A stretch of DNA of 24,672 nucleotides from Chitinispirillaceae bacterium (GTDB taxonomy: Bacteria > Fibrobacterota > Chitinivibrionia > Chitinivibrionales > Chitinispirillaceae). The notes under the pieces were generated by a model. It did not search any database. It was given only the letters and a program-made list of their open reading frames with translations, and was not told the origin of the DNA. A program made the position numbers and the translations under genes. Shown in pieces: positions 4,550-18,891 of the stretch. Each line of letters opens with the position of its first letter. Position 1 is the first letter of the stretch. The stretch covers positions 1 through 24,672 of the forward strand of contig JAFGHA010000179.1 of the NCBI GenBank assembly GCA_016930275.1. Direction: 5' to 3'.

Positions 4550-4677
4550 GCTCGATCCCGAGATGCGATTACGCTTCTGTCATACTCCTCAGGAGAACGT
4601 TCTTCTCAATTGCTCATTTTAAATAGTATCATTATTATTTACGCAGCTGCGGATCAACAGCAACCTGTGGGAACCCC

Positions 4678-5571: not shown

Positions 5572-5580
5572 GACCGGCGC

Positions 5581-6027
5581 GTGGGCGACTACAAAACCTA
5601 CATCACCATCCGCATGATGCTTGATTGCGTCGAGGCTTTCATCCGCAAACGGCCACCTCCCGTCCTGCGTTTTTTCTGTAACAAGTACGAGCTGACCGAC
5701 GCGCAGGCTTCCGGTATTCTCAACTGGCTCATTCACGAAGGCTTCCTGCACATCGTGGGTGACCGCAACGCCGGGTACGTTCCCACGAGGGACTTTTCCC
5801 AGACGCCGGTGATCGATATCATCAACGCGATCGAAAACCAGAACCGTCGCATCCCGAAGGCTCCCGACGACATCTGCCGGGAATTCGTGCAGGGCATGCT
5901 CGGCACCATCGCGGAACACTGCAGCATGATCATGAAAGATCTCACGTTTGCAATGCTCATCGAAAAAATCGAACAGCAGCGGGGAATTGAACGGAAGAAC
6001 AAAGGATCGCAGCGGAAGAAAAAGTGA
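5581..6027 (+). CDS. hypothetical protein, possibly winged-helix (Rrf2-like) DNA-binding
   Basis: GTG start 9 nt after the yihY-like stop. The segment LTDAQASGILNWLIHEGFLHIVGDRNAGYVPTRD resembles an HTH plus wing. The start codon is uncertain because in-frame Met codons occur at 5614/5617. Confidence 0.45.
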   Translation: MGDYKTYITIRMMLDCVEAFIRKRPPPVLRFFCNKYELTDAQASGILNWLIHEGFLHIVGDRNAGYVPTRDFSQTPVIDIINAIENQNRRIPKAPDDICREFVQGMLGTIAEHCSMIMKDLTFAMLIEKIEQQRGIERKNKGSQRKKK

Positions 6028-6127
6028 CCGGTATGGCAGGAGTGCGGTGAAGTCGGAATATTTATCAATCGTCAAAACCACTATCTAACCAAAATTCATC
6101 GGTCGCCGGTCCACCACCGCCACCCGG

Positions 6128-7972
6128 TCAACCCATTGATGCATCCTCATGCATCCGGCAGATGCACATTCTCTCCCGCTCGAGAATCGCGGGGATGTTC
6201 TGAACCGTCTGAATATCATATTCCTTTATCTCGTCCGGTAACTCCTCCCAATCCACCAGATAAGGACTGATTCTTTTTTCAACATTTTTCTCATTCCCCT
6301 TTTTCCACCCGAAGAGAAACCGCTCCGCGTTCCACCGGCGGTGTTCCATACGGGCAAGCAGCTCGATTTGCTCAGGAGTAAATACCGTCACCCGATCATC
6401 CTTCCCGCATTCATCCGTATCTACAGTATCATACCCGCATGCCCGAAGTTTGACCGGCAGGTGATCGGCCTGCTGCCGGTTCGAATCGCGCAGCGAGGAA
6501 TCGAGTTCCTCCCAGGAACACAGGGAAGGAGACTGAGGATCTCCCCCCTCGAAAATCCGCCTTTGCCGGTAGTCCTCATGAATCGCCCGTGCCGTGTGGT
6601 CAAGTTCCCAGCATTCGAATATTGCAGGCGTGCAGGTTTTGTCGATTCTGCCGAATCCGTGAATATTCAAAAGTTCCTCCCCTGCCTCTTCACTGCGCTG
6701 GAGCAGTACCCCCAGCCCGGAATTGTCATCCAGCCTGATGTACAGGGGGACATCACATTCACCGGTCAGACTCCGGAGCCGCAGCGCGCAGTTGACCGAT
6801 GCCATCGGATCGTTCATGCAGAAGACGACATAAGGAAGCGTATCCGGCAGTGCCATCTGTTCAGCCACGAAGTCACTGAATTCCCGTGTGTTGAAATCCA
6901 TATCTTTAAAGGAAATAGCACTGCACGACGCCAGCGCAGGAAGCACCTGCAGCAGCAACCCGCCTTTCTGAACGGCATCACGGTCGACTACCGTTACCTT
7001 CATCTTTTTCATATTGGCGAAATGGCCAAGCTTCACCGCCTGTAAAATAACGCTCTCCCCCATCGCCCCGAACCCCGCCACAATGCAGTGTATGATCGTG
7101 GGATCATCCGGCGCAATCGGTTTACGGTCAAGCGGAAACTCCCGGAAAAGCATGCGGGCGGCAAGATCGTTGACCCGCACTATCCGGGTGGTACTGTTTT
7201 TTGAAGAGTTTCTGAAAAAACCGCTGCTGGTGCTGATATCGGAAAGCAGCAGGTTGTTCACCGCCAGGTAACAGTTGACACGTCTCCCCGTGGTTTTTTT
7301 CCGGCAGCCGATCAGTCCGTTCACTTTCTCGCCGATTTCAATATTGCTGCCGTCGTCGCCGCTGATCGCATACACCAGCGCCGCTTTGGTGATATTCACT
7401 TTACGCAGCACCATCTCTTCGGCGGCGTCGCCAATGACAACGGGCACTCCCAGTTCCCGGCAGGTTGCGATAAGGTCATTCTCCGCATCGACCTCCACCG
7501 CCACCACCTTTCTGCCGAGGGCACGGTACCCCCGCGCGAGTTCGAGCCCCCGTACTCCCAGACCGCAGATGACCACATGGTCCCGATACAGAGGAAGACG
7601 GAAAAACCGGTGCAGGAGTGCGGCAAATGTTTTAAAAGCAGCATACCCGAAGGTCAGCGGTGCAAGCAACCGTGCGATCGCAAGAATGAGTGGCACCCGA
7701 CTTCCGGTCTCCAGATTCGATTCGAGTACAAAGAGCTGCGCAGTGAGCAGCAGTATTTCCAGAACACTTTGCGGCTGCAGTTTATGCGCGTCCCGCAGCA
7801 CGAAGTAAAACCCTGCTGCACCGAGTACGGCTGCGGTTGCGGCAAGCAGGATAAACACCCGGATCTCATTCTCCCGCCACCAGCTACGCAGTGCATTGGT
7901 ACGGTACACAGGAGCAAGTTCAGTACCAGACCTGAAATATGACGATTGACATGATTTTCTGTTTTTATTCAT
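6128..7972 (-). CDS. channel-like membrane protein: 2 TM helices with a re-entrant-like segment, two TrkA-N/RCK Rossmann domains, and a C-terminal RyR-like domain
   Basis: TM helices are IRVFILLAATAAVLGAAGFYFVL and PLILAIARLLAPLTFGYAAFKTFAALL, with SVLEILLLTAQLFVLESNLE between them and no TVGYG-type filter. Two GxGxxG Rossmann starts are present: VVICGLGVRGLELA...VVAVEVD and CIVAGFGAMGESV...VTVVDRD. The C-terminus ARAIHEDYRQ...WEELD... and LARMEHRRWNAERFLFGWKKG...ISPYLVDWEELPDEIKEYD fits the RyR-domain consensus (EH.RW...GW..G...HP.L.P...L...K..D). GGAG lies 10 nt upstream of the ATG. Confidence 0.8.
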   Translation of the reverse strand: MNKNRKSCQSSYFRSGTELAPVYRTNALRSWWRENEIRVFILLAATAAVLGAAGFYFVLRDAHKLQPQSVLEILLLTAQLFVLESNLETGSRVPLILAIARLLAPLTFGYAAFKTFAALLHRFFRLPLYRDHVVICGLGVRGLELARGYRALGRKVVAVEVDAENDLIATCRELGVPVVIGDAAEEMVLRKVNITKAALVYAISGDDGSNIEIGEKVNGLIGCRKKTTGRRVNCYLAVNNLLLSDISTSSGFFRNSSKNSTTRIVRVNDLAARMLFREFPLDRKPIAPDDPTIIHCIVAGFGAMGESVILQAVKLGHFANMKKMKVTVVDRDAVQKGGLLLQVLPALASCSAISFKDMDFNTREFSDFVAEQMALPDTLPYVVFCMNDPMASVNCALRLRSLTGECDVPLYIRLDDNSGLGVLLQRSEEAGEELLNIHGFGRIDKTCTPAIFECWELDHTARAIHEDYRQRRIFEGGDPQSPSLCSWEELDSSLRDSNRQQADHLPVKLRACGYDTVDTDECGKDDRVTVFTPEQIELLARMEHRRWNAERFLFGWKKGNEKNVEKRISPYLVDWEELPDEIKEYDIQTVQNIPAILERERMCICRMHEDASMG

Positions 7973-8148
7973 CGGCGATTACTCCGGTACACGGATTTCA
8001 GAAAGAGCTAAACAATACAGTACCGTCACGAAATGGTACATGGAAAAATATATATTCCCCATGACGCTGCGTTTGTAGGCGACCGTGATACAATAGCCAT
8101 TACATACAGATCGTTATGTTTATTCAATGATATAAAATAAGTGTCGTC

Positions 8149-8190
8149 ATCCCGGCGACCGCGAAGCAGCGGCGTAAGCCAACCCGGGAT
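8149..8190. repeat. imperfect nested hairpin (REP/MITE-like palindromic element) in a divergent intergenic region
   Basis: ATCCCGG (8149-8155) pairs with CCGGGAT (8184-8190), and an inner CCGC/GCGG stem encloses GAAGCA. The flanking ...GTCATCCCGGCG...CCCGGGATCCAG... resembles the short GC-rich palindromic elements scattered in many bacterial genomes. Confidence 0.3.
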
Positions 8191-8282
8191 CCAGTAGAAA
8201 GATGTCGTAACGCACTTATCTATTCCGGGCTCCGGCCTGAGGCAGAGTATTCATCAGACAACCACATTTAAAGAAACCGCTC

Positions 8283-8744
8283 ATGCAGTCAATCTTCGTT
8301 CTCTTTGCCTTCTGTATTCTGCTGGGTTCTTCGACTGGGAGTACCATAGTTACACAGGAAACCGTCCCGGTCGCGTCGGCCACTTCCCCTACCGGTACCT
8401 TCAAACTGATAACCGTCAACCGTGACTCATCCGTTACGGAAACCGGAACAGACTTTTCCACGGTAGTGAGTAACGATACGGTACCGGTACTCATTCATTT
8501 TTCCGCCGAATGGGCCGCGCCCTGCAAGACAATGCATCCGGTCCTGGTTGAAACGGCGAAAAAGTTCAGTAAACGGGCATTTGTCGGTACAGTGGATATC
8601 GAGGAGTCACCGGAAGTAGGAGCGTATTATATGATCCGCTCGGTTCCGACGTTTGTGGTTCTTGTGAAAGGACGGGAGGTCGCCCGTTCCGTCGGCATGA
8701 TGACCCAGAAGAAGCTTGCCGGTCTGGTTGAGATCAAACGGTAG
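8283..8744 (+). CDS. secreted thioredoxin-fold protein with a degenerate monothiol active site (WAAPC)
   Basis: The signal peptide MQSIFVLFAFCILLGSS is followed by a Thr/Ser/Val-rich linker. The Trx core is VLIHFSAEWAAPCKTMHPVL...VDIEESPEVGAYYMIRSVPTFVVLVKG. The canonical WCGPC is replaced by WAAPC, so the first Cys is lost and the second is kept. Confidence 0.8.
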   Translation: MQSIFVLFAFCILLGSSTGSTIVTQETVPVASATSPTGTFKLITVNRDSSVTETGTDFSTVVSNDTVPVLIHFSAEWAAPCKTMHPVLVETAKKFSKRAFVGTVDIEESPEVGAYYMIRSVPTFVVLVKGREVARSVGMMTQKKLAGLVEIKR

Positions 8745-8754
8745 AACGGTGGAT

Positions 8755-11700
8755 TCATTGTTTCTGTTTGCCGGTACGGCAAAACTCCTGGTACCGTTTA
8801 ACGGCTGCAGTGTGCTCTGATTCGGGAACATACTTGCTCTCAATCTTAGCACCAATTATCCCCTCAGGTAGATCAAAGGTTAAGAGTGTTTCACCCCGCA
8901 GGAGTACCCATGTTTTCGTGGTCGACCTGCATCGATCCATTTCTCCGAAAAACAACGTCAAGGCACCGGTATCAGCAATAGTCCAGTTTCCATAGCGCAG
9001 GAAAATATCCCCGGGCTGCATTCCAAGCGAATCGGCAATGGTGTTCGGAAAAACCTGAAAGATTTTCATGGTGACCACCACTTGTTTCCCGTTAATATCG
9101 TAAAATGTTTCGGATGTAATCTTTCCGCTGTCATCGTATGCCTTGTCCCACCTGGTATATCCACCCCTGGTTCGAACCGGTTTCCCATCAAGTCCGAGGA
9201 AAAGACTGGTGGTTACATTTCCACTCTGATCATACGTATCCCTGCATTTGGCATATCCTTCAGCCAATAAAAATGGAGCACCTTCCGAATTAAAAAATTC
9301 TCTCAGCTTGACATGATCAACAGTATCATGGGTAACGATCATTTTTGCATAACCGAAATTACTTATTACCGGTTTACCCTCGGTACCGAACGTCTCATAG
9401 GAGCATAGCTCTCCCCGCGCGTTGTAACTGAAGGCCGTACGGGCGTATCCATCCTTGTTTAAAACCGGCTTTCCATCGATGCCGAAGAAGGCTTCCGACG
9501 TTGTATTACTTTGGTTATCATATGTTAATTTAGTCGAAGCATAACCTCCAACAGCAACCGGTTTCCCGTCTAAACCAAAGGTAGTAACTTCCGTACGTTT
9601 CCCCTGCCGGTTGTATTTTGCAGTCCATCTCGTATAACCGTCCTTCTGCAGGACAGGCAGTCCTTTTTCATCGAAATAACTCACCTCAGTTCTATTTCCA
9701 TGCTCATCGTTTTTCATCCGCACCTTGTGGTATCCATCAGCCCAGAGCAATGGTCGTTTTTCTGAATCGAAAAGTGATATCTCTTTTAAAAAACCGTTCT
9801 CATCATAGTCGTAACACTGCCATGTGTTTATTGAAAAATCATAAGCGGACGTCTTTCTTACATTGACATCATAACCTTCTTTAACTAATGTATCTCCCTT
9901 TTCATCATATTGATAAATAGACTTTGCGATACCTGTACTTTTTACACCCACCGCACCGCCGTCAACATCAAGAAATTCCACAGTGACCTTGTTACCGTAA
10001 GCATCAAAAGTTTGTTTCATCCTGGCAAAACCTTCATTACACCGTTGCAATTCTCCGTCGGTACCAAACATTTCAATCTCTGTGCAGTTATTATAAATAT
10101 CATGGTGATATATGTATTTTGAAATCCCGAGTTCGTTAACCACCGGCTGTCCTTTTATACCGAAGGCCTCTTCTTCAATCATATTGCCACGATCATCATA
10201 TCGTCTGACAATTTTTGCCGATCTTTTACTGTTTTGTACGGGAAGACTATCCGCTCCAAAAAATTCACTGACAACCGGGTTGCCACGCTCATCCCGGGAT
10301 ACAACGGCACGCGAATACCCGTCAGGAATCATTACAGGCTGTCCAACCGAATCGAAATATGCGACCGAAATGATATCTCCACTTTCATTATAATCCAATT
10401 CCAGTTTCGAGTAGCCCGTTTTTTTATTTGTCACAGGTTTTCCTGCGATCCCGAAATATTCAGTCTGCAGACAATTTCCCTGGTCATCGCAGATATACCG
10501 TTCACTTGCCACACCTTGTTCATTCAACGCCGGTTTATCATCCGCATCAAGATACACCACTTCTATAATATTCCCTCGTTCATCATAGGTGTAAATCCGT
10601 GTTGCATACCCAACCCCCTTCCTGCCCGGATTCTCATTCGCATCAAAATACCGTTCCTCCTCCACAACATTGAATTTATCATGGTATTTCAACTCCAGTT
10701 TCGCATACCCGTCTTTGCCGACAACATAATTCCCATTCGCATCAAAACATTCAATTTGAACCCTGTTATTTCTTTCATCATATCTATAGGCAAAACTTGA
10801 ACATCCATCTTTGCTCATTGCAGGTTTTCCATCAATGCCATAATAGGAACCCGATATCTGTAATCCCCGGCTATTGTTTACTAAAACAATTTTTGAGTAA
10901 CCGCCCATATACAACGCAGGGTTCCCGACCGTATCACGATACTCTTCAGAGGTAACATTTCCCATCTGATCATAGGTCCACACCCTTTTATGATAGCCGT
11001 ATTTGTCCATTACAGGGCTGCCATTATCCCCCAGAAACGCCTGGGATACCTTGTTCCCATTCCGGTCATATTCATACACTTGCTTTGAATATCCCTCGTT
11101 CAGAATCGCGGGCCGGCAATCCAATCCAAAACACGATACTGATGTACTATTCCCGTAAGAATCATAGGTAAACCTTATCTCCGCACATCCGGCTCTAAAA
11201 ATAAAAGGCTCACCATCCGGCCCGATGTATTCCTGACTAACTCCTTCACCATCCTTGTTCCATACCTGTTTTGTTCCCATTAAACCATTTTTAAGTGCCG
11301 CCGGTTCTCCCTTCGAATTCAGATATAAAATCCATATTACTGTCTCTGCATCTTCCAATCTGGTCATCTCGCCGAAACTGCCAGTCGCATCACAGACATT
11401 ATTTCCGAGATAATCACGATAGCGACGTACTATAGTTCGACCATTAACGTCCAGAACCAGCAGGTGCTGACTGACTTTCGATTTTCGTTGAATATTGGTG
11501 AACCCGGCATCCGCATTAAATTCCACTCCTCCCTGATGAGCTGTTGTGTGGTCAAGGCTCTTAAGATCGATATAAATCGAATCCGGCCTGGCGTTACTGT
11601 CGGACAGACCGTAACCATAGTTCCACACCATAACAACTTTCCCCAGCCAATCTTTCTGCACGATCCGCTCCACTTTCCCGTCCTGCCGGTAGTCGATGCT

Positions 11701-12588
11701 CAGCTCCGCCACCCCTAATAACCCCCCCTCCAGATCCATCAGCTGGCCTTTACTGTTGACATACCCCGCTCGGACCACCTTCCCCCCGCGCTCTTCCAGC
11801 CGCCAGGTGCGATAGCGGTGGGAATGAAATTTCCGGGATACCCACCCCACCCCTTCGGGTGCGCCCCACCGCCAGGTAATGTTGCGGTAATACCGTACCT
11901 TGACACGGGTGTAATCCCACCAGGCCAAATATCCTCCCGCGATAAGCAGCACGACCGCCCCAATCGCGCCGATCTGCAACCGCAGCCGCCGCATACGACG
12001 CTGATGCTCCCGCCGTCGCAGTTCATCATAGGAACAACCGAGCACATGCGCCAGGATTCTCAGAAGCGCATTTGATTTGAGCGTTTTCAGCGGTTCAGAC
12101 GCACGCAGCCGCACATCCGCAAAGAGCGGTTCGGCATCCTCGTCTCCTTCAACGGCTGTTCCGTCTTCCCGCTGCACCACTTTTTTCAGTTCACGCAAAG
12201 CCTGCGGAAACGATTCTTCCGGAGTGCCTTCAATAAGCAACGGAATAATGCAATGCCCGCGCCCCATTTCCCTGAACTGCGCCACCTCCTGGTTTACCCA
12301 GCGCGATTTCGGAGTCGACCGTGAACAGATCACCACCAGGAATTTCGATGCGGCAAGAGCGTTTTTTATGTCATCCTTGAGGTCTGCCGAGGTTGGCAGT
12401 TCGTCCTCGTCGCGGAATACTCTCTTGAGCTTTGCGGGAATACCCTTTTTCACCAGTGCCGCAGGCGTCCGGAACGTTTCCAGCGCATGTATCAGCCACT
12501 GTGCATACTCGCGGTCGGCATCAAGATGCCGGTAGCTTATGAAAACGTCATATTCGAACACACTGCCTTTGTCGAGTTCTTCAGACAC
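8755..12588 (-). CDS. N-terminal TIR domain, single TM helix, long extracytoplasmic 32-aa repeat array and a C-terminal PDZ-like domain (1277 aa)
   Basis: GTG start with AGGAGA 7 nt upstream. The TIR region is YDVFISYRHLDAD...FLVVICSRSTPKSRWVNQEVAQF...IIPLLIEG, with the candidate catalytic Glu at aa 101. The TM helix LQIGAIGAVVLLIAGGYLAWW covers about aa 204-224. At least 22 repeat units follow. The PDZ-like end is SLGMQPGDIFLRYGNWTI...WVLLRGETLLTFDLP (about nt 8836-9075). Confidence 0.9.
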   Translation of the reverse strand: MSEELDKGSVFEYDVFISYRHLDADREYAQWLIHALETFRTPAALVKKGIPAKLKRVFRDEDELPTSADLKDDIKNALAASKFLVVICSRSTPKSRWVNQEVAQFREMGRGHCIIPLLIEGTPEESFPQALRELKKVVQREDGTAVEGDEDAEPLFADVRLRASEPLKTLKSNALLRILAHVLGCSYDELRRREHQRRMRRLRLQIGAIGAVVLLIAGGYLAWWDYTRVKVRYYRNITWRWGAPEGVGWVSRKFHSHRYRTWRLEERGGKVVRAGYVNSKGQLMDLEGGLLGVAELSIDYRQDGKVERIVQKDWLGKVVMVWNYGYGLSDSNARPDSIYIDLKSLDHTTAHQGGVEFNADAGFTNIQRKSKVSQHLLVLDVNGRTIVRRYRDYLGNNVCDATGSFGEMTRLEDAETVIWILYLNSKGEPAALKNGLMGTKQVWNKDGEGVSQEYIGPDGEPFIFRAGCAEIRFTYDSYGNSTSVSCFGLDCRPAILNEGYSKQVYEYDRNGNKVSQAFLGDNGSPVMDKYGYHKRVWTYDQMGNVTSEEYRDTVGNPALYMGGYSKIVLVNNSRGLQISGSYYGIDGKPAMSKDGCSSFAYRYDERNNRVQIECFDANGNYVVGKDGYAKLELKYHDKFNVVEEERYFDANENPGRKGVGYATRIYTYDERGNIIEVVYLDADDKPALNEQGVASERYICDDQGNCLQTEYFGIAGKPVTNKKTGYSKLELDYNESGDIISVAYFDSVGQPVMIPDGYSRAVVSRDERGNPVVSEFFGADSLPVQNSKRSAKIVRRYDDRGNMIEEEAFGIKGQPVVNELGISKYIYHHDIYNNCTEIEMFGTDGELQRCNEGFARMKQTFDAYGNKVTVEFLDVDGGAVGVKSTGIAKSIYQYDEKGDTLVKEGYDVNVRKTSAYDFSINTWQCYDYDENGFLKEISLFDSEKRPLLWADGYHKVRMKNDEHGNRTEVSYFDEKGLPVLQKDGYTRWTAKYNRQGKRTEVTTFGLDGKPVAVGGYASTKLTYDNQSNTTSEAFFGIDGKPVLNKDGYARTAFSYNARGELCSYETFGTEGKPVISNFGYAKMIVTHDTVDHVKLREFFNSEGAPFLLAEGYAKCRDTYDQSGNVTTSLFLGLDGKPVRTRGGYTRWDKAYDDSGKITSETFYDINGKQVVVTMKIFQVFPNTIADSLGMQPGDIFLRYGNWTIADTGALTLFFGEMDRCRSTTKTWVLLRGETLLTFDLPEGIIGAKIESKYVPESEHTAAVKRYQEFCRTGKQKQ
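9076..11190 (-). repeat. coding tandem repeat: at least 22 consecutive 31-34-aa units, consensus G-Y-[AS]-K-x5-Y-D-x2-G-N-x6-[YF]-F-G-x-D-G-K-P-V-x4
   Basis: Read from the translation at aa 467-1171. Examples are GYSKQVYEYDRNGNKVSQAFLGDNGSPVMDKY, GYSKLELDYNESGDIISVAYFDSVGQPVMIPD, GYASTKLTYDNQSNTTSEAFFGIDGKPVLNKD and GYAKCRDTYDQSGNVTTSLFLGLDGKPVRTRG. More degenerate copies extend upstream to about nt 11800. The units are diverged at the DNA level, so this is not a slippage-type repeat. Confidence 0.75.
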
Positions 12589-12614
12589 TGTCGTTCTCCT
12601 GTCTCATACAAATC

Positions 12615-12642
12615 ATTATGACTAAATTATTGCTACAGACAA
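12615..12642 (-). promoter_or_regulatory. candidate sigma70-type promoter for the TIR-repeat gene
   Basis: The - strand reads TTGTCT (12642-12637), a 16-nt spacer, then CATAAT (12620-12615), inside the AT-rich 104-nt spacer between the two TIR genes. This is a motif match only, and the promoter consensus of this organism is unknown. Confidence 0.25.
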
Positions 12643-12692
12643 ATACCCAAAATAGTCCATTGACACAGCAGGATCATTGCACCGGCTCAATC

Positions 12693-14543
12693 TCACCATG
12701 CGAAAATTCCCCCGGCGACAAGGAACAATACGGCACCAATTACCGCGGCTAATTGCCACAAACGCCGTATGCGACGCTGCCGTTCCCGCTGTCGAAGTTC
12801 GTCGAACGAGCAGCCCAGCACTTGCGCAACAATACGTAAGAGCGCCATAGACCTAAGTTTCTTCACCGATTCTCCTGACCGCGGCCGCACATCGGCAAAA
12901 AGCGGTTCAACATCCTCGTCACTTTCAACAAATGTTCCATCCTCGCGATTCACTACTTTTTTCAGTGCACGCAGGGCCGGCGGAAACGATTCTTCCGGCG
13001 AACCTTCAATGAGTAGTGGGATAATATGGTGCCCACGTCCCATCTCCCTGAACTGCACGACCTCCTGGTTTACCCAGCGTGATTGCGGTGTTGCGGGGGA
13101 GCAGATAACCACCAGAAAATTCGAGGCGGAAAGTGCTCGTGTTATATCATCTTTAAGATTCGCGGAGGTTGGCAGTTCATCTTCATCCCGGAAAACCTTT
13201 GTCAATCGTGACTTAGTTCCTTTTTTGACCAGTGGCAGAGGAGTGCGGAACATTTCGAGCGCATTGACTAACCACAGAGCATATTCACGGTCGGCATCAA
13301 CATGCCGGTAACTGATAAATGCATCATACTCATACCCGTTTTCAATACCGGCATTTTCCGGTACAATCATTATTCGTATACTATTGTAAAGTTCACTGTA
13401 TAGTCGTATAGCTAAGGCTGGGATTCGAAATTTGTTCATTGCCCTATTGTCGAGCACACGCAGATATACTCCAGCTACCAGCCAGCAGGAAACAGTCCAG
13501 TACCCGCCATACCCCGCGAATGGCATAGGAATAAAGGGTACCAGCCGCACCACCCCCGTTGATCTGGTTATATGTGCAATTGCTAAAAAAATAAGAATAA
13601 ATAACAGTACCCGGGCGACTTCTCGACTGTTTTCATCGCGTATTTTTCGACATCCTGCCCACATTACATATGCCAGTACTGCATAAACTCCACACAGTAT
13701 CGCCACTCCGATGCCACCGAACTCATACCATAACATTTGCAGCGTGGAATGAGCCGCCAGTAGTTCATACCTGACAGTATTCTTATTCAAACACTGTTGA
13801 CCGTTACGGTCCTTTGTATCCGATTGCACCCACGACTTGTAGCAGTTGCGACTGTCATGCAACCGGGCCGCCGCACGAACCTGATGAGCAGACGCTTTAT
13901 CGTATACTACCTCGTTATAGTCCGGATTGAACTTCACCAGCAGTAATATCGCCACAACACCACACACCACCGGCACAAGTGCAAGGGTGATTTTTATACC
14001 GGGCATACGCGAGACCAGCACCATATACAAAACCGTTGCATTGAAAAGCAGCAGCATCGCCGTGTCCGGCTGCAGTAACAGAAGCCCGTTGACGGCAACG
14101 GTCAACCCCGCGACTGCACCCGGATATTTCCAACCGTCCTTTTTACGGCAATCAGTGAAAATCAGATGCACCAGCAGCGGCAGAAGAAGGAGCAATGCCA
14201 AAGTTCCGGAATGCAGCGGGAAAGGCCCAAACCAAACAATCTGGGGCTCTCCAGAGCAAAAAGGACCCCATTGACCGCATTGGGCTTGGGCTGTAAGGAG
14301 GAGAACTCCCGCAGCTGCAGCAAGGTGATACCTGCTTCCACGCCAATTAACTCTGACCAGCACAAGCGATGTCGCAAGAACAATTCCGAAACAGTTTCTG
14401 CTCAGGAATCGCATGAAATATTCGATATCGAATCCTGCGAACGACCAGAATTGCCGGGTAAGATACCCGCCGATTATCGTCAGGGCCAGCATCAAACCAA
14501 CAATCAGGACTGCTGTGCCGATATTCCGTTCGGTTGTTCTCAT
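12693..14543 (-). CDS. polytopic FtsW/RodA/SpoVE (SEDS)-like membrane domain fused to a TIR domain and a C-terminal TM helix (616 aa)
   Basis: ATG with GGAGA 9 nt upstream. In aa 1-365 the SEDS-like motifs occur in the right order: LLLLQPDTAMLLLF (compare QPDLGT), ELLAAHSTLQMLWYEFGGIGVAIL (compare PE.HTDFIF..i.EE.G..G) and PFIPMPFAGYGGYWTV (compare g.pLPf.SYGGS). In aa 405-585 the TIR region is YDAFISYRHVDAD...FLVVICSPATPQSRWVNQEVVQF...IIPLLIEG. The terminal TM helix is LAAVIGAVLFLVAGGIFAW. Confidence 0.8.
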   Translation of the reverse strand: MRTTERNIGTAVLIVGLMLALTIIGGYLTRQFWSFAGFDIEYFMRFLSRNCFGIVLATSLVLVRVNWRGSRYHLAAAAGVLLLTAQAQCGQWGPFCSGEPQIVWFGPFPLHSGTLALLLLLPLLVHLIFTDCRKKDGWKYPGAVAGLTVAVNGLLLLQPDTAMLLLFNATVLYMVLVSRMPGIKITLALVPVVCGVVAILLLVKFNPDYNEVVYDKASAHQVRAAARLHDSRNCYKSWVQSDTKDRNGQQCLNKNTVRYELLAAHSTLQMLWYEFGGIGVAILCGVYAVLAYVMWAGCRKIRDENSREVARVLLFILIFLAIAHITRSTGVVRLVPFIPMPFAGYGGYWTVSCWLVAGVYLRVLDNRAMNKFRIPALAIRLYSELYNSIRIMIVPENAGIENGYEYDAFISYRHVDADREYALWLVNALEMFRTPLPLVKKGTKSRLTKVFRDEDELPTSANLKDDITRALSASNFLVVICSPATPQSRWVNQEVVQFREMGRGHHIIPLLIEGSPEESFPPALRALKKVVNREDGTFVESDEDVEPLFADVRPRSGESVKKLRSMALLRIVAQVLGCSFDELRQRERQRRIRRLWQLAAVIGAVLFLVAGGIFAW

Positions 14544-14595
14544 CGAATTGTTCTCCGTTGTATGTTAAATTAGATATACCTCAAATCATTCGACA

Positions 14596-17295
14596 TCATC
14601 TCTTCAGGTAAATCCCCAGCCCCGCGGCCTTCGCCAGTGCAGGAAGATCGCGGAATGGAGCCCGGTCCTTCTCCCGTTCCCCATCGAGTCGCGGATCGTT
14701 CCAGGGCAGAATACAGGGATGTTTTCGTGCAGGTTCGTCACGTACCGGACCGTACCGCCATCCCTCCATCAGCCGTTCGACATTCCAGCGGCCATGTTCC
14801 TCTTCGGCAAGAACCTCTATTCCCTCGTTGCCGATTGCCGCTTCGAGATCTTTCACCGGTTCTCCGTTTCCCTGACCCTGCGGAAGCAGTTCGAGCCCGT
14901 ACAATTCGAGCAGTCGCTTCATCTGAAATGCCTGATGTAAATTTGCCCTTTTGAAGGTTTCATCGAGTTCGTCCCATTGCGGCAGAGGGGCGCGGCGCGT
15001 TCCGGCGATGTATTTCTCGTGAAGCAGCCGCGCGAACGGTTCCACCTCACCGCGAACCGGTGAAATCACTCCGAGGTTTCCCGGAATCATCCGGCAGAAA
15101 TTCCGTATGGTCGCCTGATCATGCGGCAGTGAAAAGCAGCGTTTCCTGACGGTCGCCGACCATCGCGAAGCCTCCCCGGTGATCTCATCGGCACTGCGGC
15201 CGCTGCCCGCTATAATACCGACGGTTGCCCCGAGGGCGGCCGCAAGACGGTACTCAAAGAGCGATATCGGACCGCCGCCCGCTCCGAGCACCCGGACATC
15301 TTCCGGACGTACACCGGCTGAAAGCAGATCGATCCAGTTCTGCACCGGTTGAGCGAAGGTAAACCTTTTGGAACGCGGCACCGTGATCTGTTCATATGCC
15401 GGATGTTCGGCATCGTCATCCACATGACGCGACTCTGGCCGATACGCCTTCAACTGCGGCGACGCTCCGTTGCGCCGGGATGCGGCGATCGCATCGCCGA
15501 CGATTTTCGCGACGCCGACATCGGTGCCGCCGCAGTACACCGTTCCGTTGAATCCGTCAAGTGCGGAAGTTATCGCCCCCGAAAAGGCATCGAGTGTCTC
15601 CTGTTTGTCGCGGTCGCAGGTCCCGGCGACGATCAGTACCGGTCGTGTCGGATCGATTGACGTGTCAAGCGGAGTGAGAACGGAATCGCCACCGGTTTCC
15701 GGTGGTTCACCACCGGCCTCGACCACGACCATACCGATCGCAAGCACCTGCAGAAGCAGTTTGAGCTGCCGTGCGAAATCGGTGTCGAGCGATTTCACCG
15801 CGTCGTAGAGTTCCTGCAGGAGTTCCCGCTCTTCCGCCACCTGGCGGAAATCGGTACTTGACGCGATCCCCATGGTACAGCAGCGAAGACTTTCCGGCAG
15901 ATCACCCGCCAGAGCAAGGAGACGCGCACTGGTGAAATGGGCGAACGGCAGTTCAATCCCCGCCGTCGCATGCTCTTGGCAGCTTGCGACCGCCCCGGCG
16001 ATTGCCGACTGCATCGCGATCGCGGCAGACCGTGAACTCCTGCCGAGACAGAGCATGTGAACATAATGCCCGAACAGATAGGGATTTTCCGGAGCGAGCA
16101 GATGGGCCTGGAAATAGTAATTGCGGGCCGCCACAATACGTCTATGTGATGCAGTGTCGATCAGTTCACAACGGCCGCATTCGGCCATTGCCAGTGCCCT
16201 GACCGCCTTTTCCCGGTCGTCATCCTCAATATCCGCTTTCAATCGATGCACTATCGTGCAGAACTGCTGATCTTCGGTCAATGCATCGATATCGACGACA
16301 ACCGGCCGGGCAAGCGCGATAAGATCATCAAAACCCGCTCTGAATTCAGCCGATTTCCGTTCATGCACATACAATCGGCAGCGCGCCTCGGCAACGATAT
16401 ACCGCAACTCGTTTCGGAACGGCCCCCGCGCGGTTGCAATCCAGGGCGCACATTCCAGTACGTGTTTCCAGTCACGGAGACGACGATACAGCTTGCCGAG
16501 ACGCAGCGCGATCGGAGCCGTTTCTTCACCGAGGTTCTGTGCAAGAAGCAGCCTGAGCCGTCCGACCTCGGCCTCCATTTCTTCCTTATCAAGAAACGCG
16601 CCGTGATCGACTTCGTAGGTTTTCAACCGGTCAACCAGTGCATCGATCGAGCAGCTTGCCTCCTCGAGAACCGCCGAGAGGCGGTTCGATTCACGCACCA
16701 GTACCGCGGGAATTTCCGCTCCGCCCTTGTACAGCAGATCGTGCAGTGCATCCGCCCATACATGTTGAAGATCCGTACGGATCTGAATCTCCGCTTTACG
16801 CTGCAGCCTCGTTCCATCCGAAGCAGCCTTCCGTACCTCCTTGATCGCTTCGGCAATCGACGACGGTATCTCGATCCCGGCCAGTGCCATTCTCTGTTCG
16901 AAATCGGCGGGCAGGAGCACATCAAGATGCACCGAGCCGTACCCGAACCGCTCTACTCCGGCAACCGCAAGTTTATCCTCGCTCTTCTTCACATCGAGGA
17001 ACCGGCCGATCAACCGGTTGGCTTCTCTGACTTCCATCCCGGTATGAACGATAAGTCTGCCGCCGCACAGGTCGCCGAACTCGTGCACCGGATCGGTATA
17101 TCCCGTCTTGCGCAGAATTTTTTCCGCAAAACTCGCCGTTTCCTTGGTACGGACCGCAACCGTACCGAGCGGAGCCGTCCGGTCGCGTACCGCGGCGAGC
17201 AGCCAGGACAATATCTCTCCGAACGATTTGTAAATCGGCCGTTCATACGAAGTGAATTCCGTGATCTGTTGTTCGATAGTGACGGTACCGTCCAT
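14596..17295 (-). CDS. RelA/SpoT-family nucleotidyltransferase, helical linker, SLOG/LSDAT domain and RyR-like domain fusion (899 aa)
   Basis: The RelA_SpoT motifs lie in aa 55-190: FAEKILRK, GDLCGGRLIV, FGYGSVHLDV and AEIQIRTDLQHVWADALHDLLYK. The SLOG/LOG-like motifs lie in aa 550-705: VLIVAGT, YCGGTDVGVAKIVGD, LGAGGGPISLFEYRLA and IIAGSGRSADEI. The RyR-like region lies in aa 752-895: FARLLHEKY...WDELDE and LAEEEHGRWNVERLMEGWRYGP...KHPCILPWNDP...EREKDR. Confidence 0.9.
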   Translation of the reverse strand: MDGTVTIEQQITEFTSYERPIYKSFGEILSWLLAAVRDRTAPLGTVAVRTKETASFAEKILRKTGYTDPVHEFGDLCGGRLIVHTGMEVREANRLIGRFLDVKKSEDKLAVAGVERFGYGSVHLDVLLPADFEQRMALAGIEIPSSIAEAIKEVRKAASDGTRLQRKAEIQIRTDLQHVWADALHDLLYKGGAEIPAVLVRESNRLSAVLEEASCSIDALVDRLKTYEVDHGAFLDKEEMEAEVGRLRLLLAQNLGEETAPIALRLGKLYRRLRDWKHVLECAPWIATARGPFRNELRYIVAEARCRLYVHERKSAEFRAGFDDLIALARPVVVDIDALTEDQQFCTIVHRLKADIEDDDREKAVRALAMAECGRCELIDTASHRRIVAARNYYFQAHLLAPENPYLFGHYVHMLCLGRSSRSAAIAMQSAIAGAVASCQEHATAGIELPFAHFTSARLLALAGDLPESLRCCTMGIASSTDFRQVAEERELLQELYDAVKSLDTDFARQLKLLLQVLAIGMVVVEAGGEPPETGGDSVLTPLDTSIDPTRPVLIVAGTCDRDKQETLDAFSGAITSALDGFNGTVYCGGTDVGVAKIVGDAIAASRRNGASPQLKAYRPESRHVDDDAEHPAYEQITVPRSKRFTFAQPVQNWIDLLSAGVRPEDVRVLGAGGGPISLFEYRLAAALGATVGIIAGSGRSADEITGEASRWSATVRKRCFSLPHDQATIRNFCRMIPGNLGVISPVRGEVEPFARLLHEKYIAGTRRAPLPQWDELDETFKRANLHQAFQMKRLLELYGLELLPQGQGNGEPVKDLEAAIGNEGIEVLAEEEHGRWNVERLMEGWRYGPVRDEPARKHPCILPWNDPRLDGEREKDRAPFRDLPALAKAAGLGIYLKR

Positions 17296-17459
17296 TTTAT
17301 TTCTTTCTGTTGGTCATGATTTTTCGTATTTCCTCAGGAGTCGGAAGACAGAATCCATCCTACTGAACGGGATCACCTTGAGCGGGAGATGACAGTTATT
17401 CGCAATCATTTATGCCGTCGTGTAGAGCAGAATGTTTTTCTGATTCTGGATTCCGACTA

Positions 17460-17478
17460 CATCCCGCTTGGCGGGATG
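17460..17478 (-). promoter_or_regulatory. GC-rich stem-loop in the 209-nt spacer between the HD gene and the RelA/SpoT-SLOG gene
   Basis: CATCCCGC (17460-17467) and GCGGGATG (17471-17478) form a perfect 8-bp stem with a 3-nt loop, about 27 nt downstream of the HD stop on the - strand. No U-tract follows, so it is not a canonical intrinsic terminator. Confidence 0.4.
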
Positions 17479-17504
17479 GATACCTGCGTAGTTCCGAATT
17501 ATCT

Positions 17505-18089
17505 TTACACCTCTCCGAATAACTGTTCCACCAGATGCTGCAACTGCCCCACCAGTGGTTCGCACCGAAGCCCCGTAGACCGTTTTCCGAACAGACGTAC
17601 CAGTTCCCGGTAATACCACCGGGCTCCATCCTTTCCACCGTTGAAACGCTCCCAGACCATATCACCGGCAATCGCGACATCTGCAGCGATATCACTGAGG
17701 TTACAGAATTTATCCGCCGCGGCAACGGCGAGAGCTTGCTCATCAACGGTCATCAGCCGGGTAATGGTCCGCTGCTTTTTTCCCCGCCACCCGTCATCCT
17801 GATCATGAAAGGTCACCTGCTCAACAATACCGGTAATTCCCTCACCGAACTCTCCCGCCAGTTCACTGCGGGTCACGGTGGTATCCTCCAGTACATCATG
17901 CAGTATACCGGCCGTTACCACCGGATCGTCACACCCGAGCCGTACCAGTGTGCGGGCGACGTCGAGCGGATGACAGAGGTACGGTATGCGGGTGCATTTC
18001 CGGAATTGCCCCGCATGCGCCCGGGCTGCGAAAACCGTAGCTTTGAAAACAAACGTTCCCTCAACGGAATTGTTTCGCCAATTCTCCAC
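17505..18089 (-). CDS. stand-alone HD-domain (p)ppGpp-hydrolase-like protein (small alarmone hydrolase / SpoT-Mesh1 HD_4 type)
   Basis: GTG start with GAAAGG upstream. ARAHAGQFRKCTRIPYLCHPLDVA...AGILHDVLEDTTVT...EFGEGITGIVEQVT matches the H..Q.R / PY..HP..VA / LHD..EDT / FG..v...V..vT signature of SpoT-type hydrolase domains. The later AAADKFCNL corresponds to the ADRL.N helix. Confidence 0.85.
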   Translation of the reverse strand: MENWRNNSVEGTFVFKATVFAARAHAGQFRKCTRIPYLCHPLDVARTLVRLGCDDPVVTAGILHDVLEDTTVTRSELAGEFGEGITGIVEQVTFHDQDDGWRGKKQRTITRLMTVDEQALAVAAADKFCNLSDIAADVAIAGDMVWERFNGGKDGARWYYRELVRLFGKRSTGLRCEPLVGQLQHLVEQLFGEV

Positions 18090-18342
18090 AAAAAACCTTT
18101 CAGAATATGCAGCACCGGAAAAGTGAATGAACGGACTGCTGCGGTGCGAACAGAAAACGGATCAGACAGGGTGAAGGACCGGCAGACGGCCCGGAAAAGA
18201 TAAAATAGTTTGTCAACTCCGCGAAAGCACGTTTTTATTGATTTTACGGTATTGCCCTGCCGGGCATGAAAAACATCTGCGCTATAAATACGGTGGAAGT
18301 ACCGGAAGGATACCGGGTAACATGAGAAGAAGGAACAGCCGG

Positions 18343-18615
18343 TTATTTACCGGCACTTTTTTTACACGCTTCGACCGCGTCATTGCACTGCATCCGGTAT
18401 GCCTTGAGAATATTCTCGGCATCCTTTTTCTCATCGTCGGAGAGTTTCTGAAACGTGGCCTCGAATTCCCGCGCCTCTTTGCAGATATCCTTCATGTGAT
18501 TGCAGTAAGGGGTATCGGGAAGCTTGGCGGTATTGACGAACTCCGCCCCTCCGCAACCGGTTGCACCCATAACCGACAGCACCACAGACAGCACCGGTAG
18601 AATTCGTTTTTCCAT
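18343..18615 (-). CDS. small lipoprotein (hypothetical)
   Basis: The track ORF starts at 18633, but the second ATG (18615) has AAAGGAA about 7 nt upstream. MEKRILPVLSVVLSVMGATG|C is a signal peptide with a lipobox-like ATGC. The mature part is a helical, Cys-containing 65-aa domain. Confidence 0.6.
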   Translation of the reverse strand: MEKRILPVLSVVLSVMGATGCGGAEFVNTAKLPDTPYCNHMKDICKEAREFEATFQKLSDDEKKDAENILKAYRMQCNDAVEACKKSAGK

Positions 18616-18891
18616 GAAGGATTCCTTTCGCATGTTCCGGAGTCAGAGCCGCGGGAGAGATCCGGATAGTTCCGAAAATACCGACCGCAACCACATCGTG
18701 AAAATATACTTTCGGAATTGCAGTTGCGCGACGACGGAATGCTCGGTAACCTGCTCAGAGAGGACTTCACGCAAATGATATTCAGCCTGTACACTAGCTG
18801 CAACGGCCGTCGACGGCAGCTCCGCGACGATGGTACCTGCTGTACGCTGACGCGATTCAGCCACCGGTGACATTCGAGGTCACGATGAGAA

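Follow-up and report, generated by a model that had tools for sequence, protein, structure and literature searches.

Introduction

Thoeris systems take several forms: type I pairs a TIR protein (ThsB) with a SIR2-SLOG protein (ThsA), type III combines several TIR proteins with SLOG, type IX consists of TIR and SLOG, and type X has an ion channel. Among the toxic small alarmone synthetases (toxSAS), antitoxins of the small alarmone hydrolase (SAH) type are an established precedent, and SAH enzymes are specific for 3′-pyrophosphates. The LSDAT/SLOG family was reportedly defined by Burroughs and colleagues in NAR in 2015. Here, we describe a five-gene cluster from a Chitinispirillaceae bacterium (GenBank assembly GCA_016930275.1, contig JAFGHA010000179.1) in which TIR, SLOG, RelA/SpoT, and SAH-type parts lie side by side. 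The whole stretch of DNA analyzed, hereafter the window, is 24,672 nucleotides long. The invariant core of the system is a cytoplasmic protein of 899 aa, RSR, in which a RelA/SpoT synthetase domain is followed by TPR-like helices, a SLOG domain of the LSDAT type, and, last, an RY12 (RyR-repeat) domain. Our leading reading, to which we give slightly less than an even chance, is that the cluster belongs to a widespread multi-gene nucleotide-signaling system, most likely one of conflict or defense, in which a Thoeris-like relay would have a new output.

Several described proteins bear on this comparison. A survey of TIR signaling systems covers Thoeris types I-XI and 29 putative effector classes, including SLOG-patatin, SLOG-4TM, TIR-SLOG, ion channel, HIT and CMP hydrolases, and SLATT; its text and part of its tables do not mention RelA/SpoT, RyR, or NUDIX. 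RelA-type domains have been described as rare nucleotide-generating modules in vWA-MoxR systems (Kaur et al., 2020). DUF4062, renamed NIR, is a TIR-like NADase that converts NAD+ to ADP-ribose (ADPR) and is an effector in the Avs, Swarozyc, Vulcan/Vesta, and Evangelion anti-phage systems (three 2026 preprints). The LSDAT SLOG of TRPM channels, known as MHR1/2, provides TRPM2 with a binding site for ADPR (PMC13143021). RyR Repeat12 (RY12) is an ADP/ATP-binding clamp in which the adenine stacks on W882 while R886, R897, and H904 contact the phosphates (RyR1 numbering; PMC12627627, PMC13642953). The authors of these structures proposed that prokaryotic RY12 domains, including those of "putative tetrameric cation channels," may sense nucleotides; as made by Kim et al. 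(2026), the suggestion comes without pathway context.

Results

The locus compared with named systems

The cluster had first been picked out from the letters of the DNA as five neighboring genes for two TIR proteins, a protein joining RelA/SpoT to SLOG, an HD hydrolase, and a channel-like RCK protein. We find the five genes where this original prediction placed them, all on the minus strand, and Pfam, two confident structural models, and conserved catalytic residues uphold all of its domain assignments (Table 1). The genes for the HD protein, RSR, and the 616-aa and 1277-aa TIR proteins follow one another in the same direction, separated by 209, 52, and 104 nt; the gene for the 614-aa channel-like protein is a separate transcription unit on the same strand.

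PADLOC called no named system in the window: the TIR domains weakly matched the candidates PDC-S66 and SAVED_TIR, ThsB reached an E value of 0.0063, ThsA was not matched, and the RelA/SpoT core matched only the candidate PDC-S33 (1e-8, over the catalytic motif). The Thoeris ThcB4 model of NCBIfam scored 18.3 bits against a cut-off of 220. Neither collection had a ThsA or ThsB model that the window matched above threshold. With these searches and the text and part of the tables of the Thoeris survey giving no match, the locus corresponds to no named system, which supports the original prediction. The RSR system apparently fits no named family, and a brief earlier mention of RelA/SpoT-LSDAT fusions is possible in Burroughs et al. 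(2015).

The likeness to Thoeris is nonetheless considerable. In both, TIR genes with a catalytic Glu lie beside a gene for a SLOG-bearing effector (in the window, the first TIR gene follows RSR after 52 nt), several TIR paralogs may share a locus, the sensor parts of the TIR proteins are modular and variable, and some types have a channel-type partner. Unlike Thoeris, the predicted output in the window is a RelA/SpoT pyrophosphokinase, which is absent from the effectors named in the text and part of the tables of the survey; the SLOG domain is of the LSDAT (TRPM-like) family, RY12 is common to several partners, the TIR proteins are predicted integral membrane receptors, and RSR loci have a dedicated pyrophosphohydrolase as their most conserved partner. 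On this evidence, the system would be TIR/SLOG signaling with a new output and extra tiers.

Table 1. Features of the cluster, with positions in the window
Feature	Position	Strand	Description	Evidence
HD protein, 194 aa	17505..18089	-	stand-alone SpoT-type HD hydrolase, small alarmone hydrolase family (predicted)	Pfam HD_4 1.7e-17
RSR, 899 aa	14596..17295	-	RelA/SpoT synthetase + TPR-like helices + LSDAT SLOG + RY12	Pfam, alignment, AlphaFold, Foldseek
RSR aa 1-230	16606..17295	-	small-alarmone-synthetase-type pyrophosphokinase domain (predicted)	motifs, PDB matches, Foldseek
RSR aa 235-527	15715..16593	-	all-helical TPR-like linker or regulatory region	DSSP of model, Foldseek
RSR aa 545-745	15061..15663	-	LSDAT-type SLOG (Rossmannoid), predicted ligand sensor	Pfam, Gly loops, profile vs PDB
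RSR aa 746-899	14599..15060	-	RY12 (RyR-repeat), predicted adenine-nucleotide-binding clamp	Pfam RyR, Foldseek, aligned contacts
Membrane TIR protein, 616 aa	12693..14543	-	SEDS/Wzy-like polytopic aa 1-365, TIR aa 404-560, C-terminal transmembrane helix	
Membrane TIR protein, 1277 aa	8755..12588	-	TIR aa 11-165, transmembrane helix aa 204-222, YD-repeat ectodomain of ~1050 aa	
Channel-like protein, 614 aa	6128..7972	-	2 transmembrane helices on either side of a pore-helix-like segment + tandem RCK/TrkA_N + C-terminal RY12	
Exported thioredoxin, 153 aa	8283..8744	+	signal-peptide-like N-terminus	Pfam Thioredoxin 5.4e-20

RSR carries an intact synthetase core and two candidate ligand-binding domains

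Pfam recognizes three domains in RSR: RelA_SpoT (2.4e-10), LSDAT_prok (25.9 bits, marginally above the gathering cut-off (GA) of 25.4), and RyR (3e-9). An AlphaFold model built on an alignment of 21 homologs reached a pLDDT of 86 and a pTM of 0.75. In this alignment, the synthetase motifs RxKxxxSxxxK, DxxGxR, GYxSxH, EIQIRT, and HxWxxxxHxxxYK are invariant or nearly so (R49xK51xxxS55xxxK59, D75xxGxR80, G118Y119..H123, E169xQxRT174, and H178/W180/H185/Y189K190 in the window protein), bearing out the claim of an intact RelA/SpoT core.

The same domain resembles RelQ and RelP most closely, in sequence (E ~1e-5 in a PDB search) and in the predicted fold, for which Foldseek found RelQ/SAS1 and RelP/SAS2 (5dec/6fgk) at a TM-score of ~0.8 and E ~1e-7. 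All ATP-site and acceptor-site motifs of these enzymes are present. Whereas RelQ and RelP are stand-alone proteins of ~210 aa with a housekeeping role in stress, RSR has an insertion of ~40 aa that separates the YxxH strand from EIQIRT, and adds ~670 aa of regulatory domains. The toxSAS CapRel gave a Foldseek TM-score of 0.42 and no sequence match at E<=1. The term "toxSAS-type effector" in the original prediction therefore describes an analogy and not membership. That analogy, to toxSAS such as FaRel (with its SAH antitoxin ATfaRel), CapRel, and PhRel, consists of the intact catalytic core and the adjacent same-strand SAH-family gene, which lies 209 nt upstream; in addition, the C-terminal regulatory regions of RSR could autoinhibit the enzyme as in CapRel. 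RSR differs in being an 899-aa protein of four domains, against ~200-400 aa for the toxins, and in that its usual partner is a MutT-like NUDIX protein and not an SAH.

The region after the synthetase is made of helices only (DSSP of the model), Foldseek matches it to the TPR arrays of SPY/OGT, and some homologs carry Pfam TPR matches. Alternating β-strands and α-helices follow at aa 553-735. Here G590, G594, G671, G675, and E681 are invariant and G589, T591, and G674 are conserved in at least 90% of the 21 homologs, forming the family motifs GGT..G and GGG....E. When a family profile of this region was compared with the PDB, the best matches were the MHR1/2 domains of TRPM2, TRPM7, TRPM8, and TRPM3, which have the same motif; the E values, 0.013-1.5 with nvTRPM2 at 0.013 on top, are weak but consistent. 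A SLOG match was present in every one of 93 RSR open reading frames (ORFs), representing 86 distinct loci.

The C-terminal domain of RSR matches, at Foldseek probability 1.0, human RyR3 Repeat12 (6uhb and, as a complex with AMP-PCP, 9ls7) and a chimera of Bacteroides and human RyR (Bt-hRyR, 6uhi). Its RY-repeat motif, EHxRW...GW, is invariant or nearly so in the 21 homologs, and W837, R841, R852, and H859 align with the RyR1 nucleotide contacts W882, R886, R897, and H904 (PMC13642953).

One genome, the Fibrobacteres metagenome-assembled genome (MAG) nzgw217, contains two RSR paralogs, 47% and 31% identical to the window protein, and each is overlapped by a NUDIX gene.

RSR is widespread and linked to hydrolase, TIR, and DUF4062 genes

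A pattern scan of one genome per species identified full-length RSR in at least 79 species-level genomes. Since the pattern is generic to RelA/SpoT, the 480 relatives that it returned are an upper bound and the 79 full-length loci are the firm count. Carriers occur in Fibrobacterota, Desulfobacterota, Nitrospirota, Planctomycetota, Verrucomicrobiota (including Kiritimatiellia and Lentisphaeria), Cloacimonadota, Hydrogenedentota, Gemmatimonadota, Chloroflexota, Acidobacteriota, Actinomycetota, Bacteroidota, KSB1, and Bacillota, and in the archaeal groups Methanobacterium, Methanoregulaceae, and Bathyarchaeia. The sole cultured carrier in the scan was Oligosphaera ethanolica DSM 24202, whose locus (L074) has RSR, NUDIX, and RCK-RY12 genes and a TIR gene at a distance of 6 kb.

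We counted neighboring genes in the 85 distinct loci other than the window. Neighbors were detected among six-frame ORFs with iteratively built custom hidden Markov models (HMMs), and the resulting sets were validated by Pfam or NCBIfam sampling. Many loci are on short MAG contigs with short flanks, which makes absences uncertain. A NUDIX gene was within 200 bp of RSR in 53 loci, on either side and often overlapping it, and within 10 kb in 60. TIR genes were found within 10 kb in 41 loci, DUF4062 genes in 29 (13 such genes within 500 bp), and one or the other in 58. Over the first 500 bp from RSR, the density per 10 kb was 6.4 for NUDIX genes and 2.1 for TIR genes; farther out it was ~0.1 for NUDIX genes, and for TIR genes it was 0.05-0.5 beyond 2 kb. 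Because these densities fall steeply with distance from RSR, the association is not a by-product of sampling 20-kb windows. In Pfam-annotated neighborhoods of nine RSR homologs, the recurring features were NUDIX genes adjoining RSR, TIR domains fused to Asp-protease, TPR, STAND-WD40, or HSP70 domains, and TrkA_N-RyR genes immediately upstream of RSR.

The original prediction had staked itself on conserved co-localization in other genomes, and this linkage was found both in the 85 loci and in the nine annotated neighborhoods. Its Thoeris-like logic stands in part: the SLOG, TIR, and RelA/SpoT parts and their linkage are confirmed, but the TIR protein is not the tightest partner (41 of 85 loci, against 53 with an adjacent NUDIX gene). 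The most conserved partner of RSR is a small pyrophosphohydrolase, and the core unit is RSR plus this enzyme.

Some individual loci deserve mention. The closest whole-locus analog of the window, on an Anaerolineae MAG (L041, ~4650-15470), has genes for RCK-RY12, TIR-TM-WD40, NUDIX, RSR, and TIR-TM-β-propeller proteins (TM, transmembrane helix), with NUDIX instead of HD. At L002 (3222-8470), VWA and Tubulin_2 genes are directly upstream of an Asp-protease-TIR/RSR pair and a 1654-aa RHS/YD-shell protein is encoded downstream, a conflict-system-like neighborhood that echoes the YD theme of the window.

The hydrolase partner is HD in the window and NUDIX in most relatives

The HD protein scored 64 bits with HD_4 (cut-off 27.2). 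Its best PDB relative is Lmo0812 (4yf1, 3e-26), followed by 7qoe, the hydrolase domains of Rel, MESH1, PaSAH, and the (p)ppApp hydrolase 7smg, and its HDxxED and ADKxxNL motifs align with those of solved small alarmone hydrolases. Judged by these matches, it belongs to the SAH family.

All 55 NUDIX neighbors matched MutT/NudG/NudI-type models in Pfam or NCBIfam, with an invariant Nudix box, placing them with NTP pyrophosphohydrolases rather than ADPR-ases. Apart from the window, HD_4 neighbors confirmed by Pfam were present in two of the 85 loci: at L090, as in the window, HD replaces NUDIX, and L019 has both. That HD and NUDIX are mutually exclusive occupants of one slot is suggestive, with three HD loci and a hypergeometric p of ~0.2. 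An HD call by the custom HMM at L002 was dropped, as Pfam did not confirm it.

Given the specificity of SAH enzymes and the NTP-pyrophosphohydrolase type of the NUDIX proteins, the hydrolase may act on the product of the RelA/SpoT domain, which would be the simplest substrate common to both families.

The predicted NAD-cleaving partners are TIR proteins with variable sensors or DUF4062 proteins

Both TIR domains of the window match Pfam TIR_2 (1.5e-13 at the N terminus of the 1277-aa protein and 9.7e-13 in the 616-aa protein) and ThsB_TIR (1.3e-9 and 5.6e-9), and their best PDB relatives are plant TIRs. The glutamate of the "S.W..QE" motif, to which the original prediction had drawn attention, is found in SRWVNQE. 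It aligns with the catalytic Glu of the plant TIRs L6 and L7, corresponds to E494 of the 616-aa protein, and is at least 90% conserved in the 57 TIR neighbors of homologous loci, all of which match Pfam TIR_2.

Hydropathy predicts a cytoplasmic TIR domain in both proteins, consistent with the envelope-embedded receptors that had been proposed. In the 1277-aa protein, a single transmembrane helix would lead to a large ectodomain with a repeat spacing of ~32/64 aa, in which TIGR01643 (YD_repeat_2x) scored 23.6 bits against a cut-off of 15.8. The last ~100 residues look PDZ-like by eye, with no Pfam match at E<=0.01. The 616-aa protein has seven to eight hydrophobic segments and a C-terminal transmembrane helix at aa 592-610. 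Its likeness to SEDS proteins is slight: FTSW_RODA_SPOVE reached 4.2e-5 and 23.1 bits, below the GA of 26.4; TIGR02210 reached 30.9 bits against a cut-off of 336.7, over the C-terminal 90 residues only; and partial rodA/ftsW and weak HpsL polymerase matches were also recovered.

The two TIR-plus-transmembrane modules (11920-12558 and 12693-13334, minus strand) are paralogous, with 73% protein identity over 213 aa and 72% DNA identity, and are only 49% identical at third codon positions. They represent an old duplication that purifying selection has maintained. The C-terminal end of the 616-aa protein coincides exactly with that of the shared transmembrane helix.

Elsewhere, the TIR partners of RSR carry TPR, NB-ARC, WD40, HSP70, CHASE2, or β-propeller ectodomains and are thus hypervariable sensors. 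Many have the TIR-TM-ectodomain order of Toll-like receptors, and polytopic TIR proteins also occur. When the 93 other RSR-anchored loci (L001-L093) were searched with phmmer, their ORFs included no relative of the YD ectodomain or of the SEDS-like domain, making these two sensors specific to the window among the 57 TIR partners sampled.

Three DUF4062 matches checked by Pfam were DUF4062-STAND proteins, two of them with TPR. Our own hhalign comparison of DUF4062 with TIR gave an E value of 0.0026 and a probability of 11%, and it is the published work on NIR that establishes DUF4062 as TIR-like. The predicted NAD-cleaving partners of RSR loci thus come in two unrelated-looking forms. By analogy with the published NIR proteins, the DUF4062 partners strengthen the link of RSR to NAD/ADPR chemistry and place many RSR loci beside proven defense genes. 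Genes like the NIR-STAND-TPR NADases of Avs-type systems are thus frequent near RSR, but the window has none, and the published NIR is a terminal, NAD-depleting effector and not a generator of a signal.

RY12 is a module shared with a channel-like protein and AAA+ proteins

The 614-aa protein contains TrkA_N (6.9e-17) and RyR (7.2e-11) domains by Pfam and two transmembrane helices by hydropathy. In Foldseek searches with its model (pLDDT 86), the top match was GsuK with bound ADP and NAD (E 5e-11), followed by TrkA, MthK, and Slo1, and its RY12 domain matched RyR3 Repeat12. Taken together, the RY12 domains of RSR and of the 614-aa protein matched 6uhb, 6uhi, 9ls7, and 9l9b at Foldseek probability 1.0. 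The family has at least 135 members of ~600 aa, which share a conserved "D.LY..LQLFvLESG" segment. The GYG of the TVGYG K+ filter is absent from this family; the filter position is occupied by the conserved "LQLFvLESG" segment. With two transmembrane helices, a pore-helix-like segment, and tandem RCK domains, the protein resembles GsuK, MthK, and TrkA; it differs from them in lacking TVGYG, in its extra RY12 domain, and in the linkage of its gene to RSR, TIR, and AAA-RY12 genes. We consider the protein channel-like, with no K+ selectivity to be assumed; it probably acts as an effector at the membrane or as a second receiver.

RSR, the RCK channel, and AAA+ partners have RY12 in common. Another RY12 protein was encoded near RSR in 25 of the 85 loci; 19 of these were RCK-RY12 proteins and the rest mostly belonged to an AAA+(MoxR-like)-RY12 family of ~860-990 aa. 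AAA+-RY12 genes next to RSR occur at L055 (15006-17690), L081 (4541-7126), L046 (14812-17604), L089 (5984-8614), and other loci, and most of those checked have a MoxR-like AAA+ domain; the RyR domain of this family is C-terminal. In metagenomic loci, RY12-only ORFs of ~860-990 aa also adjoin RCK-RY12 genes. The original prediction had treated the RyR domains as incidental; they are instead a shared module in which the RyR1 contacts are conserved, suggesting a further tier of signaling.

The reverse search was made with 19 metagenomic RCK-RY12 loci having at least 4 kb on each side. RSR was within 10 kb in six of them, another RY12 protein was present in seven, a TIR protein in four, and none of these in five to six. 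The RCK-RY12 channel is therefore a frequent but non-obligate partner of RSR. The exact gene order of the window was not kept in the nearest RCK-RY12 relatives sampled, all on short contigs. The homolog at L174 (71% identical) has an SNF2 helicase neighbor. At L175, an RCK-RY12 homolog (56% identical) adjoins a CHASE2-TIR gene (the pair being at 3783-5558 and 6777-8630) on an 8.6-kb contig that has no RSR; two other neighbors, of 911 and 143 aa, are neither RSR nor thioredoxin. This is a TIR/RCK-RY12 pairing independent of RSR. In a tblastn search of 50,697 phage records for RY12 "sponges," a search of limited sensitivity, the RY12 domain of the 614-aa protein gave one weak partial match, which lends the idea of such sponges no support.

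TIR genes beside RCK-RY12 even where RSR is missing (L156, L173, L146, and the CHASE2-TIR gene of L175) would also fit a wiring centered on RY12, in which the RY12 clamps of RSR, the RCK channel, and the AAA+ proteins would read a TIR or NIR product in parallel and the SLOG domain would serve otherwise, for example in binding substrate or product or in LOG-like nucleotide processing. The conservation of the RY12 nucleotide contacts, together with the binding of ADP/ATP by RyR RY12 in solved structures, is compatible with this arrangement, and a manual motif comparison shows that the invariant E681, six residues after the GG pair of the SLOG domain, has the Glu spacing of the LOG "GGxGTxxE" motif. 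However, the known bacterial receptors of TIR signals include SLOG and Macro domains, with no RY12 case in the text and part of the tables of the Thoeris survey; the channel might just as well sense nucleotides through RCK, as GsuK binds ADP and NAD; and RY12 proteins are rarer partners of RSR than TIR or NIR genes in the sampled loci. We think a wiring centered on RY12 very improbable.

The combination of an LSDAT SLOG, NUDIX, and RY12 with TIR in one bacterial system recalls animal TRPM2, with its LSDAT/MHR1-2 and NUDT9H domains, and RyR. The bacterial SLOG and RY12 domains are on a pyrophosphokinase and an RCK channel and not on TRP or RyR pores, and the bacterial NUDIX is MutT-like and not NUDT9-like. 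The functional homology would be one suggested by the shared domains.

The thioredoxin gene and the edges of the cluster

A thioredoxin gene, convergent to the gene for the 1277-aa TIR-YD protein, separates the RCK-RY12 gene from the run of HD, RSR, and TIR genes. It is doubtful that thioredoxin is part of the system, and the closest RCK-RY12 locus sampled, L175, has no counterpart. The protein might serve the Cys-containing ectodomain of the 1277-aa protein or be unrelated.

ORFs of 120-222 aa without Pfam matches flank the cluster (5476-6081 on the minus and 5581-6027 on the plus strand; 17535-18600 on the plus strand), and a terminator-like bidirectional hairpin is present at 18338-18354, upstream of the HD gene. 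A scan of 5500-19000 for promoters and terminators returned counts at about chance level, which are therefore uninformative on operon structure.

Evidence against a Thoeris-like defense relay, and two other explanations

Several observations weigh against reading the cluster as a Thoeris-like relay for defense, and some of them concern its parts. The LSDAT assignment is marginal for the single sequence and the PDB matches of the SLOG profile are weak, and the RSR synthetase is closer to housekeeping RelQ/RelP than to known toxSAS. About half of the loci, many with short flanks, lack a TIR gene within 10 kb, and neither TIR nor DUF4062 is present within 10 kb in 27 of the 85, which means that RSR and its hydrolase may work alone. 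The Avs-like neighbors could merely reflect clustering in defense islands. We found no RSR on viral contigs, and a profile-pattern scan of IMG/VR, with limited sensitivity, found no relative of the RCK-RY12 protein. On plasmids there was no full-length RSR, only short RelA/SpoT-domain matches. As for the surroundings, the cluster is surrounded by ordinary genes (for GH57, ferredoxin, BrkB, a Pel9A-like lyase, and amine oxidase), the large flanking ORFs include no integrase, transposase, or known defense gene, and a tRNA scan of the whole window was negative, all as first noted for integrase, transposase, and tRNA. The only island-like trait of the window is the lower-GC segment encoding the YD ectodomain (8755-11919, minus strand), with a GC content of 0.45 against 0.51-0.58 in neighboring system genes (~0.55).

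The short plasmid matches, NZ_CP058965.1 (Klebsiella, 3.5 kb) and NZ_OY725946.1 (Bacteroides finegoldii), cover only the RelA/SpoT region (~185-210 aa, 27-29% identity). Lying on small or mobilizable plasmids, they may be toxSAS-like genes.

The loci without TIR or DUF4062 raise the alternative that RSR and its hydrolase form an autonomous two-gene module of the toxin-antitoxin (TA) or abortive-infection kind, comparable to fused or bicistronic toxSAS. RSR would sense a trigger directly through its TPR-like, SLOG, or RY12 region, HD or NUDIX would neutralize its basal product, and the TIR, NIR-STAND, and channel genes would be island neighbors. This would fit the hydrolase being by far the tightest partner, the existence of loci such as L001 (RSR and NUDIX with a STAND gene and no TIR), the absence of RSR from about two thirds of the well-flanked metagenomic RCK-RY12 loci, and the SAH-type antitoxins of toxSAS. 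It fits less well with the peak in TIR gene density at less than 500 bp from RSR, often in the same orientation and with gaps below 60 nt, with the retention of an ADPR-binding-type LSDAT SLOG in every RSR, with the RY12 module that ties RSR to channel and AAA+ partners, and with a synthetase fold closer to RelQ/RelP than to CapRel. We judge an autonomous module to be unlikely.

The RelQ/RelP-like synthetase and the metabolic flanks also recall the suggestion, made with the original prediction, of a housekeeping pathway from envelope stress to the stringent response with no role in phage defense. The TIR receptors would report the state of the wall or envelope, RSR would make (p)ppGpp or pGpp, like RelQ and RelP under cell-wall stress, the SAH would reset the pathway, and the channel would adjust ions. 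Both TIR proteins are predicted to be embedded in the membrane, one with a large ectodomain and the other with a SEDS-like domain, a gene for an exported thioredoxin is in the locus, and mobile-element markers and relatives on viral contigs or, at full length, on plasmids are lacking, as such a pathway would have it. Yet the distribution of RSR across phyla looks patchy, NIR-STAND (Avs-like) NADases of a type shown to be anti-phage are frequent neighbors, and the YD and SEDS-like sensors are found in the window alone among the TIR partners. TA, transposase, and RHS genes occur in several RSR neighborhoods; these neighbors, the hypervariable TIR sensors, and the two RSR paralogs in one MAG are typical of conflict systems. 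A housekeeping role of this kind seems to us distinctly improbable.

Discussion

For the RSR system, it is established what the domains are, that the catalytic and ligand-site residues are intact, and that the gene linkage is conserved. From this we infer the enzymatic steps, the identities of ligands and products, the direction of signaling, and the biological role. In the Thoeris-like wiring that we favor, which is plausible but unproven, a TIR product acts through SLOG on a RelA/SpoT output that a hydrolase resets. NAD-cleaving sensor proteins would be switched on through their variable sensor parts; in the window, these would be the two membrane-spanning TIR receptors, with their YD-repeat ectodomain and SEDS-like polytopic domain, and elsewhere TIR-NB-ARC/WD40/TPR or DUF4062(NIR)-STAND proteins. 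The activated sensors would turn NAD+ into ADPR or an ADPR-derived signal. Binding of this signal by the LSDAT SLOG of RSR would relieve the autoinhibition of the N-terminal RelQ/RelP-like pyrophosphokinase, which would then make a 3′-pyrophosphorylated product, either an alarmone of the (p)ppGpp or (pp)pApp type or possibly pyrophosphorylated tRNA, and growth would be arrested. RY12 clamps may detect the kinase product too, or else the TIR product: that of RSR as feedback, and that of the 614-aa channel as a membrane output. Finally, the small pyrophosphohydrolase, an SAH-type HD protein here and mostly a MutT-like NUDIX protein elsewhere, would set the threshold for activation and reset the system.

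A bolder version, to which we give a small chance, is a two-tier second-messenger cascade in which RY12 is a dedicated messenger receptor and which would be a prokaryotic source of the animal toolkit linking ADPR and adenine nucleotides to Ca2+ channels. In such a cascade, TIR or NIR proteins would make an ADPR-type signal that the LSDAT SLOG captures. The RelA/SpoT domain would then make an adenine alarmone or, possibly, 3′-pyrophosphorylate the captured ADPR-derived molecule, giving an undescribed class of messenger. RY12 clamps would read this messenger, gate a non-K+-selective RCK channel, and drive the AAA+ effectors, and NUDIX or SAH enzymes would erase it.

The system may have been missed because its sampled members come almost entirely from anaerobic or sediment lineages that are uncultivated, among them Fibrobacterota, Desulfobacterota, Planctomycetota, the Verrucomicrobiota/Kiritimatiellia group, Chloroflexota, Gemmatimonadota, and methanogens. 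The cultured carrier Oligosphaera ethanolica DSM 24202 makes it directly testable. If the Thoeris-like wiring is true, TIR immunity would have a new output, the synthesis of an alarmone-type nucleotide, in place of NAD depletion, pores, or proteases. The system would join Thoeris/TIR immunity with the enzymology of the RelA/SpoT stringent response, under the two-tier cascade the first such link, and would provide the first functional context for a bacterial RyR (RY12) domain. The presence together of TIR/NIR, LSDAT SLOG, NUDIX, and RY12 bears on the origin of animal TRPM2 and RyR signaling.

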